DNA from: a virus
Lineage: Duplodnaviria > Heunggongvirae > Uroviricota > Caudoviricetes
DNA: 4,239 bases
Reading direction: 5' to 3' (one strand)
Virus record (IMG/VR): IMGVR_UViG_648276671_000009
Location: 1-4,239 of that record
Under the pieces are notes generated by a model. The model was not told the origin of the DNA. It made no database searches and saw only the letters and a list, made by a program, of their open reading frames with translations. Each line of letters begins with the position of its first letter. Within the stretch, counting starts at the first letter, position 1. Of this stretch, positions 1-4,239 are shown piece by piece. The position numbers and the translations under genes were made by a program.

Positions 1-246
1 CCGAGAGTATACTGGAAGAACATGGACTGGATAGTCGCCCATAAAGGACAACTGGTGGAGCGGTTGATGCGGCTTAAAAAATTTCCCCGAACGCTTTACG
101 ATCGTAAAAAGTTGAATATCCTGTTAAGAGTGGTTACTACGCCACACAGCTTAAACCCGCCGATGAGCGGGTTTTTTATGCCCGAAAAGTGGCACAGGGC
201 GTTAAACGCGCTGGTGGTTGCGAATGCAGGCCTCTCAGTTTGCTGA
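1..246 (+). CDS. hypothetical protein, 3' portion (5' end outside window); possibly a late-gene regulator (Q-like) by position only
   Basis: Frame 1 is open from position 1 with no in-frame stop until TGA 244-246; the track ORF 22-246 is the internal Met. Followed by an AT-rich spacer, a promoter-like element and the tRNA array, as downstream of Q in lambdoid phages. No diagnostic motif recognised, so the product is a guess. Confidence 0.45.
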   Translation, partial: PRVYWKNMDWIVAHKGQLVERLMRLKKFPRTLYDRKKLNILLRVVTTPHSLNPPMSGFFMPEKWHRALNALVVANAGLSVC

Positions 247-376
247 TTTTTTAGACAAGATTTATTTAGCCAGGCGTATCCAAAATAAAAATAATCGTTA
301 TATATGAGAATTTTTTCTTATTTTTAGAAACAAGAAAAATATATGCGGATATTTACGATTGCTGACGTTATCTTTA

Positions 377-405
377 TTGAGCTCGTTCGAGGGGATTCGT
401 ATTAT
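377..405 (+). promoter_or_regulatory. candidate sigma70 promoter for the tRNA array (possible late promoter pR' analogue)
   Basis: TTGAGC (377-382), 17-nt spacer, TATTAT (400-405); predicted start near 412, about 25 nt upstream of the first tRNA. A -10-like AATGAT lies at 421-426 in the initial transcribed region. Confidence 0.35.
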
Positions 406-436
406 ACGCCGCGCCAGCGCAATGATGCGACGGGCA

Positions 437-513
437 GGCCCTTTAGCTCAGTTGGTCAGAGCGAGCGACTCATAATCGCCAGGTCGCTGGTTCAAATCCA
501 GCAAGGGCCACCA
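437..513 (+). tRNA. tRNA-Ile2 type, anticodon CAU (lysidine type; automated tools often call it tRNA-Met)
   Basis: 77 nt with cloverleaf: acceptor GGCCCTT/AAGGGCC, D-arm GCTC..GAGC, anticodon loop CTCATAA (CAT at 471-473), T-loop TTCAAAT, encoded CCA. Close to my recollection of E. coli ileX. Confidence 0.85.
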
Positions 514-514
514 A

Positions 515-587
515 CCGCCACTAGCTCATCGGGAAGAGCGGCAACTAAATGTTGTAGTACGAGGTTCGAGGCCCCGGTGGCGGTCCA
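515..587 (+). tRNA. tRNA-like element with aberrant anticodon arm (pseudo-tRNA or non-canonical tRNA)
   Basis: 73 nt: perfect 7-bp acceptor stem CCGCCAC/GTGGCGG, D-arm GCTC/GAGC, T-arm with GTTCGAGG, encoded CCA. The anticodon arm GCAAC-TAAAT-GTTGT has only a 5-nt loop, so no canonical anticodon can be assigned. Confidence 0.5.
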
Positions 588-589
588 GT

Positions 590-665
<76 letters not shown>

Positions 666-668
666 TAT

Positions 669-743
<75 letters not shown>

Positions 744-1108
744 GCATTTGAAACAAGCCTTATTGTATTGTGGCACTGGCGTATTTTTTTATTACGTGTG
801 AGCAGGTTGTATTGAAAAAGCATTCTGTTCTCTGGCTATGATTTGAGGCCGGGTGTAGCCTCAGTGCTGATTTTTTTACGGCAGCAGAATGGTGCATTAT
901 CGGTGGAGATTTTGTATTTCCTGGCAGGGGCGGTGATGCATCATTCTGGTGTTGTAAAAGCACCGCAGAGGCGTTCCTCAGTGCGAGGGTGGTTTAAAGA
1001 GTCGGTTTAGCGGGAAACCACAGTATCCATACAGAACGGAATACTTCGGGAGGCACCCGACGCCTCGATTCTATTACAATTAAAAATTCATCCTTTGCAT
1101 TGACCAAC

Positions 1109-1896: not shown

Positions 1897-1919
1897 AAAG
1901 GCATCTGCGGGTGCCTTTT
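1897..1919 (+). terminator. putative terminator hairpin (first of a tandem pair)
   Basis: 9-bp stem AAAGGCATC / GGTGCCTTT with tetraloop TGCG, ending in TTTT. Confidence 0.45.
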
Positions 1920-1938
1920 ACGGGGTGTTGTTTTTTAC

Positions 1939-1960
1939 GGGCCGCTGGTGGCCCTTTTTT
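1939..1960 (+). terminator. rho-independent terminator
   Basis: Stem GGGCC (1939-1943) / GGCCC (1950-1954), loop GCTGGT, followed by T6 (1955-1960). Confidence 0.7.
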
Positions 1961-1978
1961 ATTTACAGGAGAAAAAGT

Positions 1979-2373
1979 ATGTCTGAACCCTTGTCCGGCT
2001 CCGGTACGGCTGCGGCGCTCGGTGGGGCGACGGTATTCGGGCTGTTTACCGGGACGGATTTCGGGATTGTGTTTGGCGCGTTCGCCGGGGCGTTATTTGT
2101 GGCAACGATCCACAGGCAATTTCAGCCTGGCGGGTGGCAGCGCATTTTCTGGTGTCGTTCATTATCGGCGTGCTGGGCGCAGAGGTGCTGGCATCCTTGC
2201 TGGTAAAGCATACGGAGTTTGACGGTGCGCCTGTCGACGCATTGTGTGCCGTGCTGGTTTCGGTGGTGTCGGTGAAGATTCTGTCGTTCATCCACCAGCA
2301 GGATATCGCATCACTGGTGTCCGGCCTGTTCTCCCGTCTGCGTGGCGGAGGAGGTGGCGGCAATGTTAAGTAA
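1979..2373 (+). pseudogene. class I-like holin (3 TM) interrupted by a 1-nt frameshift in a G-run near 2129-2136; intact gene would encode about 131 aa
   Basis: ATG 1979 with AGGAG RBS. Frame 2 gives MSEPLSGSGTAAALGGATVFGLFTGTDFGIVFGAFAGALFVATIHRQ and then W/C/R-rich nonsense. Frame 1 from about 2134 gives two clean helices (AAHFLVSFIIGVLGAEVLASLLV, ALCAVLVSVVSVKILSFI) and a tail ending RGGGGGGNVK, stop TAA 2371-2373. The span is 395 nt, which is 396 (132 codons) with one added base; the junction is ggcgggtgg. Confidence 0.6.
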
Positions 2374-2638
2374 CCTTCCCGGATTGCTGAATGTGGCGGT
2401 ATGCACGGTTATCGTGCTGACGCTCTTTTTTTATCGTCGTCGTGACTCCAGACATAAACCGCTGATGTCATGGCTGGCCTGGCTGCTGATGCTGCTGTAT
2501 GCCTTTGCACCCCTCAGCTATCTGTGTGGTCGCCCGTTAGCAACGGGCTGGCTGGAAGTGTTTTTTAATCTGCTGTTCTGCGTGCTGGTGATACGTGCAC
2601 GCGGGAACGTCGCAAGAATCTTTCCATTGTTGAGGTGA
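2363..2638 (+). CDS. holin-like / antiholin-like membrane protein (3 predicted TM), 91 aa
   Basis: ATG 2363 preceded by GGAGGAGG; overlaps the upstream stop by 11 nt. Hydrophobic segments LLNVAVCTVIVLTLFFY, LMSWLAWLLMLLYAFAPLSYL and WLEVFFNLLFCVLVI, with a basic C-terminus. Stop TGA 2636-2638 sits 2 nt before the endolysin start. Confidence 0.7.
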   Translation: MLSNLPGLLNVAVCTVIVLTLFFYRRRDSRHKPLMSWLAWLLMLLYAFAPLSYLCGRPLATGWLEVFFNLLFCVLVIRARGNVARIFPLLR

Positions 2639-2640
2639 AT

Positions 2641-3018
2641 ATGTCGGGTAAATTCAGATTCAGCCGTCGTAGTGAAAAAAATCTGGAGGGCGTCAAACCA
2701 CAGCTGGTTGCTGTCGTTCGCCGTGCGCTGGAACTGTCGGAGGTTGATTTCGGTATTACGGAAGGCCTGCGCACGAAAGAACGCCAGAAGCAGCTGGTCG
2801 CGGAAGGGAAAAGCCAGACCATGAACAGCCGCCACCTGACCGGTGATGCGGTGGATGTTGTTGCCTGGGTTGGCAGTCAGGTGTCATGGGACTGGCCTCT
2901 GTACGAGAAAATCGCGCAGGCATTTAAGCAGGCTGCCGCAGAGCTGGGAACTGCCATCGAATGGGGCGGGGACTGGCGGACGCTTAAAGACGGCCCACAT
3001 TTTCAATTGAAGCGATAG
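2641..3018 (+). CDS. endolysin, peptidase M15 family (L-alanyl-D-glutamate endopeptidase, T5 Lys-like), 125 aa
   Basis: ATG 2641 with GAGGTG RBS. Zn-peptidase motifs SRHLTGDAVDV, WGGDW and DGPHFQL (His/Asp/His ligands). Lies immediately after two holin-like genes. Confidence 0.9.
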   Translation: MSGKFRFSRRSEKNLEGVKPQLVAVVRRALELSEVDFGITEGLRTKERQKQLVAEGKSQTMNSRHLTGDAVDVVAWVGSQVSWDWPLYEKIAQAFKQAAAELGTAIEWGGDWRTLKDGPHFQLKR

Positions 3019-3443: not shown

Positions 3444-3626
3444 ATGGAGAAGTATAAACGAATTCTGTTGAGGTTGACTATGAAAAACGGCCTTGAATTG
3501 AAAGCGCCTGTAACTGATGACATCAGCAGAGCGGTGGCTTTTGCTATTAAGTGGGTGGCGGTTGGCATCGCCGTGTCTCCGATGCTGTATGGGCTGGCAA
3601 AATTGATTGTTGCTCTGAAATCGTGA
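3444..3626 (+). CDS. small membrane protein with C-terminal TM helix, 60 aa (alternative start ATG 3480 gives 48 aa)
   Basis: ATG 3444 after AAGGAAG; the alternative ATG 3480 follows GAGG with 6-nt spacing. Hydrophobic C-terminus AVAFAIKWVAVGIAVSPMLYGLAKLIVAL. Stop TGA 3624-3626 is 8 nt before the next start. Confidence 0.5.
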   Translation: MEKYKRILLRLTMKNGLELKAPVTDDISRAVAFAIKWVAVGIAVSPMLYGLAKLIVALKS

Positions 3627-3634
3627 GTGGTGAT

Positions 3635-3817
3635 ATGACGCGAAAACACTGGACACACAGAATGCCGCGAACGGCGGCGAAATGGGCACTGGTAGCGATA
3701 CTGCTGCCTTTTTTATTGGTGGGGTGCGTCAGCCTGGATAAGGCGCGTCAGGTTATTCACATAGCAGAGCAGGTCTGCGAAATTGTCGACAGTGTCCGGC
3801 AGTGTATGCAGAACTGA
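3635..3817 (+). CDS. small predicted lipoprotein, 60 aa precursor with about 30-aa mature part (alternative start ATG 3662)
   Basis: Signal peptide with positive n-region, hydrophobic core WALVAILLPFL and lipobox LVGC; mature part CVSLDKARQVIHIAEQVCEIVDSVRQCMQN has 3 Cys and is not proline-rich, so unlike Rz1. Confidence 0.6.
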   Translation: MTRKHWTHRMPRTAAKWALVAILLPFLLVGCVSLDKARQVIHIAEQVCEIVDSVRQCMQN

Positions 3818-3829
3818 ACGCCTGTGAGC

Positions 3830-3889
3830 GCAGAATATTTTGCTGAAAAATGTCGGTGATTACGCTGTCCGGAAAGCATGAAATTCTGC
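3830..3889. repeat. imperfect 15-nt inverted repeat separated by about 30 nt (candidate operator or RNA stem-loop)
   Basis: GCAGAATATTTTGCT (3830-3844) pairs with AGCATGAAATTCTGC (3875-3889) at 13 of 15 positions. Confidence 0.4.
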
Positions 3890-3987
3890 ATTTGTGGTCA
3901 TTCAATAAAATAAATTCTTTCTGCTGCTGTAAATACACAAATGTGAACCGAACCCGGTGCGGCGACGGGCTTCGATATGAGGAGACG

Positions 3988-4239
3988 ATGATGGAAAAAA
4001 CAGAAAACAAACCGATTGTAATTGGTGCTGATGCTGCTCCGTTTAAGTTTGAGTTGTCTCAACTGGTGGAGATGCGCATCAGTGATGAATGGGGTGAGGT
4101 TAAAGCCCGCGCGCAGTATGCGGATGGCGAAAACCAGTACTTACTCCACTACAAAGCTGCTGATGGTCGCGCCACGACGGAGTGGTTTGGTGAGTCAATG
4201 CTGGAAGCAACAGAAGATGATGATCATCCGGGCTGGTCC
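3988..4239 (+). CDS. hypothetical acidic protein, N-terminal 84 aa (3' end outside window)
   Basis: ATGATG 3988-3993 preceded by GAGGAG; frame open to the window end. Begins MMEKTENKPIVIGADAAPFKFELSQLVEMRISDEWGEV. Absent from the track because no stop is reached. Not similar to lambda Nu1 as I recall it. Confidence 0.6.
   Translation, partial: MMEKTENKPIVIGADAAPFKFELSQLVEMRISDEWGEVKARAQYADGENQYLLHYKAADGRATTEWFGESMLEATEDDDHPGWS

Follow-up and report, generated by a model that had tools for sequence, protein, structure and literature searches.

In this prophage lysis cassette, a single-base deletion between positions 2109 and 2110 breaks the frame of the first holin gene; very probably this reflects an error of assembly or consensus calling in the Escherichia coli TA280 draft genome and not biology. 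The real sequence would read ACGATTCCACAG at this point and would encode an intact 131-aa Phage_holin_8 holin, the deposited consensus having presumably lost one T of a TT pair. With this T restored, the lysis cassette is complete and ordinary.

The window, by which we mean the whole stretch of 4,239 bases that was analysed, matches positions 68457-72695 of scaffold GL884382.1 (E. coli TA280 draft, GCA_000176655.2) with 100% identity. It corresponds to a single 4.2-kb contig bounded in GL884382.1 by N-gaps on either side (20 N and 250 N), and it covers the late region of a lambdoid prophage that resembles phiP27. The antiterminator gene Q lies upstream of the window in the TA280 scaffold, and the prophage tRNA cluster 3′ of it occupies positions 437-743 on the plus strand, where ARAGORN calls four genes and Rfam confirms three; an Rfam scan of the whole window returned tRNAs only. 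The ARAGORN call at 515-587 is a tRNA-Phe with the unusual anticodon AAA, which falls below the Rfam tRNA gathering score reached by the other three, and ETEC1732 has an annotated tRNA-Lys in the corresponding place; the tRNA at 515-587 may be degenerate or a pseudo-tRNA. Further along the plus strand, profile matches identify a TerB-like gene (1313-1738) and a DUF3927 gene (1735-1887), which together fill the slot (1313-1887) that holds stx2e in phiP27. Just 5′ of the first holin, at 1899-1960, are two GC-rich hairpins with a T-run after each (GGCATCTGCGGGTGCCTTTT and GGGCCGCTGGTGGCCCTTTTTT), similar to the structures annotated as terminators between the holin and Q of phage HK639.

The lysis genes and their ribosome-binding sites also lie on the plus strand. 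Holin 1 has a Shine-Dalgarno sequence, AGGAG, at 1967-1971, read directly from the sequence 7 nt 5′ of its ATG at 1979. From this start codon, frame 0 runs to a TAA at 2204-2206 and gives 75 aa, and the rest of the gene continues in the -1 frame to a TAA at 2371-2373. The frame is thus broken in the window as the first-pass annotation had described, with two fragments that match PF16931 positions 1-44 and 54-121 in different frames. The native N-terminal part spans 1979-2109, that is, codons 1-43 and the first two bases of codon 44 (PF16931 positions 1-44, E=3.7e-10; delimited by alignments to ETEC1732 and to read-level contigs). The native C-terminal part spans 2110-2373 and comprises 87 codons and the stop, encoding predicted helices 3 and 4 and a Gly-rich tail, as judged from translation, alignment and the match to PF16931 positions 54-121. 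As deposited, the product of holin 1 would consist of 44 native residues and a 31-residue nonsense tail translated from 2110-2206 (HRQFQPGGWQRIFWCRSLSACWAQRCWHPCW, then the TAA), which has no match to the family profile. The gene is unannotated in E. coli TA280 owing to what is probably a consensus error near GL884382.1 ~70565.

The position of the lesion was resolved by homology. Between 1987 and 2203 neither frame contains a stop codon, so the slip cannot be located by open reading frame logic alone. Alignment to ETEC1732 (94.9% identity) places a one-base deletion between 2109 and 2110, equivalent to GL884382.1 70565/70566, where relatives read ACGATTCC or ACGATGCC and the window reads ACGAT-CCACAG. 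The window thus has AT|CC, against ATTCC (in full ACGATTCCACAG) in the three near-identical read-level contigs and ATGCC (in full ACGATGCCGCAG) in most E. coli homologues. Judging from these alignments, the lost base is a T (or a G), and the run it belonged to was no longer than a TT dinucleotide. Repair at 2109/2110 yields a protein reading ...VATIPQAISAWRVAAHF..., in agreement with the ...VATMPQALSAWRVAAHF... of homologues, and over a longer stretch ...FVATIPQAISAWRVAAHF..., which fits the family's ...FVATMPQALSAWRVAAHF....

The slip had earlier been mapped to a G-run at 2129-2136, which is 20-27 bases downstream of the site indicated by ETEC1732 and the three contigs. A base added in the G-run produces ...VATIHRQFQPGGVAAHF... 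(in longer context ...FVATIHRQFQPGGVAAHF...), which has no match in the family. One added base does restore the frame, giving 131 codons and a stop, so the proposal of a 132-codon frame repaired by one extra G stands as to the single base and fails as to its place and identity, the missing base being a T (or G) at 2109/2110. Likewise, because the alignments place the deletion there, the number of native codons in the first frame is 44 and not the 50 first counted.

Evidence that the deletion is an artefact comes from three independent read-level contigs that cross the site, assembled from runs SRR024214 (contig L064), SRR024231 (L067) and SRR024238 (L065). All three carry TT at 2109/2110 and an intact 131-aa holin, and L064 carries a called 131-aa PF16931 gene. 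The uninterrupted frame of ~125-133 aa that is absent from the deposited window, where it is split at 2109/2110, is therefore present in 3/3 read-level assemblies. Of the explanations first offered for the break, sequencing error is the one backed by these assemblies, which essentially supply the extra base and intact frame expected on resequencing, the extra base being a T at 2109/2110.

The three runs appear to be TA280's own reads, because the sequence identity extends beyond the window and the alleles are unique to them. A second contig from SRR024231 (L070) is 100% identical to the TA280 scaffold for 2,223 bp beyond the window, and contig L068 likewise for 900 bp. Compared with L070, the nearest other public assembly examined (L069) shows 29 differences in 3.6 kb, and the best identity among complete E. 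coli genomes is not above ~95%. The exact TerB and 93-aa alleles occur, in a 15 billion-protein collection, in TA280 and these three runs only.

The window and the read contigs differ at several other places. Four are differences in homopolymer length (A7/A6 at 2675, T7/T6 at 2426, T6/T5 at 2561 and GG/G at 4235) and two are mismatches, T/G at 1919 beside a T-run and A/C at 2058 at the tip of L065. Position 1919 falls within the T-run of the first of the two hairpins described above. Each of these discrepancies is seen in one run only and is contradicted wherever another run covers the site, leaving 2109/2110 as the sole site at which every read set differs from the deposit. The pattern of discrepancies among the read contigs is typical of pyrosequencing reads, and we infer that the TA280 draft was itself pyrosequenced.

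Assembly of the region is imperfect, since the 250-N gap that follows the window is really an overlap of ~424 bp, which read-level contig L070 spans straight through. The contig after that gap (8928-9601 of L066, a piece of the TA280 scaffold) repeats window positions 3815-4239 with 99.8% identity. On the other side, just before the 20-N gap, L066 3948-4668 is a second version of the tRNA region (window 95-813) with 92.5% identity, as expected if two segments of prophage are paralogous or if the scaffold is misjoined here.

The missing T could have arisen in either of two ways. The 2-mer TT may have been undercalled, or a column-wise consensus may have been taken over mixed ATTCC and ATGCC reads from paralogous prophages. 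The case resembles the false frameshifts of the pyrosequencing era in being a single-base indel in a draft contig that is contradicted by reads, with A7/A6 and T7/T6 miscalls in its neighbourhood. It differs from homopolymer errors of that era in that the affected run is 2 bases long, and mixed paralogous reads may contribute. Two points weigh against a consensus error: 454 classically miscalls long homopolymers and not a 2-mer such as this one, and if two near-identical cassettes existed, one intact and one deleted, read-level assemblers could have retained the majority path only.

A real loss of one base in the TA280 prophage, which would inactivate holin 1 and, with holin 2 and the endolysin intact, alter the timing or competence of lysis, is unlikely, although the deposited sequence does lack that base. 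Lysis genes of prophages do decay, and in 9/52 porcine STEC strains this holin is present only in part (PMC12571312). Fragment-only families also exist in PHROGs, where phrog_21855 (48 aa) and phrog_16047 (73 aa) hold the N-terminal-only or C-terminal-only part of holin 1; split annotations of the gene therefore occur in other phage or prophage records. Against inactivation stand the TT in 3/3 read-level assemblies of what is apparently the same strain, the lack of further decay in a region where holin 2, endolysin, TerB and DUF3927 are all intact, and the absence of the deletion from every other sequence examined.

These searches covered several collections. No gene in the protein collection encodes the exact product of either holin 1 fragment, which is weak negative evidence, and a deletion-specific 31-mer gave 0 matches in metagenome and viral collections. 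With the site at its centre, a 71-nt query spans 72 nt in each of the 12 best-matching genomes out of 253 complete E. coli genomes, so the deletion was not seen in these. In a 596 Gb genome collection, for which it is too short, a degenerate pattern of 19-20 nt in which one base was optional returned 62 chance matches in unrelated bacteria and 0 enterobacterial loci. All 27 of the 27 aligned full-length homologues are uninterrupted through the site, listed homologues being mostly ~125-133 aa long, and 20/20 matches in phage records are single pieces.

One homologue of holin 1, P0111 from a 5.14-Mb E. coli contig, bears a compensated double frameshift at residues ~30-46 (...TDFGAVVLVRSPGRYLWDRCRQALSAW...), the second shift lying near the same site as the window deletion. 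We also considered a conserved split gene, as suggested by the half-only PHROG families and by an HK639 match at residues 52-122, and rejected it: the HK639 gene is an intact 129-aa open reading frame with a divergent N-terminus, and the two-frame arrangement was seen in none of the homologues examined. Were the deletion real in TA280, which we doubt, the first of the two holins would be present as a naturally occurring null allele in a cassette whose second holin and endolysin are intact. Such an allele would offer a natural experiment on the share of each phiP27-type holin in lysis timing or toxin release.

A duplicated prophage or a heterogeneous culture could in principle supply both an intact and a deleted cassette, of which the deposit and the read assemblies report different ones. 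The 92.5%-identical tRNA-region paralogue just upstream of the window in the scaffold is compatible with this, as are the up to 7 cassette-matching places per E. coli genome and the breaking of read contigs at repeat boundaries, L064 and L067 both beginning at window position 704. The two cassettes would, however, need to be identical over >1.6 kb save for one base, and 0 read-level contigs have a gene call for the product of either fragment. We regard this reading as contrived and very improbable.

Programmed -1 ribosomal frameshifting, or the slippage-driven phase variation of lysis competence that the first-pass annotation had raised, deserves hardly any credence, since two overlapping open frames are all that speaks for it, no X_XXY_YYZ heptamer occurs where both frames are open, runs of >=4 bases are limited to GGGG at 2024 and 2087 and TTTT at 2145, away from a break at AT|CC that lies outside any repeat tract, and the two-frame layout is not conserved, aligned full-length homologues being single open reading frames across the site.

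The repaired protein gives further support to its assignment. The 131-aa sequence scores 79.3 bits against PF16931 Phage_holin_8 (cut-off 26.4) over positions 1-121 of 121; taken alone, the N fragment reaches 40.4 bits and the C fragment 35.5 bits. It also matches the holin family phrog_198 (E=1.3e-41). By these sequence comparisons, holin 1 is identified as a Phage_holin_8 member and an orthologue of phiP27 L28. The gene stands beside the endolysin in a late lysis cassette, as holins do, with Q, tRNAs, holin 1, holin 2 and M15 endolysin (TA280, ETEC1732, phiP27 and HK639). This cassette family is widespread in Enterobacteriaceae prophages, with 185 protein clusters (E<=1e-5) and matches in 368/5,426 complete E. 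coli genomes.

Repaired holin 1 is probably a small membrane protein, and its hydropathy indicates hydrophobic segments at residues ~10-24, 27-44, 53-74 and 86-103. An AlphaFold model of a 96%-identical orthologue (P0001) has four helices at ~7-24, 28-43, 50-79 and 84-122, with a mean pLDDT of 54.7 that is too low for more than helix boundaries. The deletion lies in the loop after the second predicted helix. The N-terminal part had been described as one clean transmembrane helix; the low-confidence model and hydropathy together suggest instead two short hydrophobic helices (7-24 and 28-43). The tail of the protein, ...SRLRGGGGGGNVK, is Gly-rich and weakly charged.

The downstream holin gene is intact, as had been noted from the sequence. 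Holin 2 (2363-2638) encodes a 91-aa Phage_holin_3_7 protein orthologous to phiP27 L29 (PF05449, 80.4 bits, E=1e-22; holin family phrog_217), and its first 11 nt are shared with the end of holin 1, the same arrangement as in ETEC1732, phiP27 and HK639. A likely Shine-Dalgarno sequence for holin 2, GGAGGAGG, can be read at 2347-2354, 8 nt 5′ of ATG 2363 and within the poly-Gly codons of holin 1, which probably double in this way as a translation signal. There is also an in-frame GTG seven codons 5′ of this ATG (2342-2365, MAEEVAAM...), and the annotated length of holin 2 varies, with a 98-aa form in the TA280 annotation and a 91-aa form in RefSeq. Being acidic, the extension does not resemble the dual start of a lambda-type antiholin.

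Holin 2 is followed by an intact gene for a 125-aa M15 family endolysin (2641-3018; PF13539; endolysin family phrog_465, E=6e-75), orthologous to phiP27 L30. 3′ of the endolysin are two small conserved open reading frames, at 3444-3626 and 3635-3817, whose PHROG matches are all to families of unknown function. One has a C-terminal hydrophobic segment and the other a lipobox-like LLVGC. These may be spanin candidates, because phiP27 is listed with unusually short singleton spanins (PMC6139136).

The cassette has close counterparts in characterized phages and prophages. In phiP27 (NC_003356.1), the L28 holin, L29 holin and L30 endolysin have the same gene order and the same holin overlap as in the window, the nucleotide identity over window 1900-2700 is 93.8%, and the cassette is 3′ of the tRNAs and the moron slot in both. 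phiP27 L28 is intact and has a longer annotated N-terminus (435 nt), whereas in the deposited window the gene is one base short. ETEC1732 also has this cassette in its annotation. HK639, a viable lambdoid phage, encodes the same holin pair as HK639_67 and HK639_68 (129 aa and 92 aa, with an 11-nt overlap), 3′ of Q and several terminators, but its holin 1 is only ~50% identical and it has another type of endolysin (209 aa).

A function for this family is suggested by work on porcine STEC, in which Stx2e prophages encode a 130-aa ‘putative holin’, WP_032083190, that is orthologous to holin 1 (PMC12571312). Deletion of WP_032083190 abolished enrofloxacin-induced extracellular Stx2e, and expression in trans raised release (PMC12571312). 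Holin 1 may make lethal lesions in the membrane and free endolysin at a set time, the evidence bearing on this being indirect and drawn from that work on its orthologue. The primers of that study map onto the window at 1979-1998 (0 mismatches), 2026-2047 (0 mismatches) and 2354-2373 (1 mismatch), with ATGTCTGAACCCTTGTCCGG and TTACTTAACATTGCCGCCTC fitting the window gene with 0 and 1 mismatch, respectively. The 3′ homology arm of the knockout corresponds to window 2374-2423, so that the whole first holin was replaced, ATG 2363 of holin 2 included. Because the start codon of holin 2 was also removed, the knockout phenotype is not assignable to holin 1 alone. The prophages of PMC12571312 are toxin-linked, partly degraded and lack the endolysin, whereas the window has no toxin gene.

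Earlier work had already described the family of holin 1, the cassette and its part in lysis and in the release of toxin, and the frameshift is most likely not a real feature of this prophage, so the case carries little biological weight. Its practical value lies in a corrected position for the lesion and in a warning about the region of GL884382.1 near ~70565; mapping the slip to the G-run would have steered follow-up to the wrong site. For single-base frameshifts in short, N-bounded contigs within prophage repeats of early drafts, read-level data should be checked before a pseudogene or phase variation is called.
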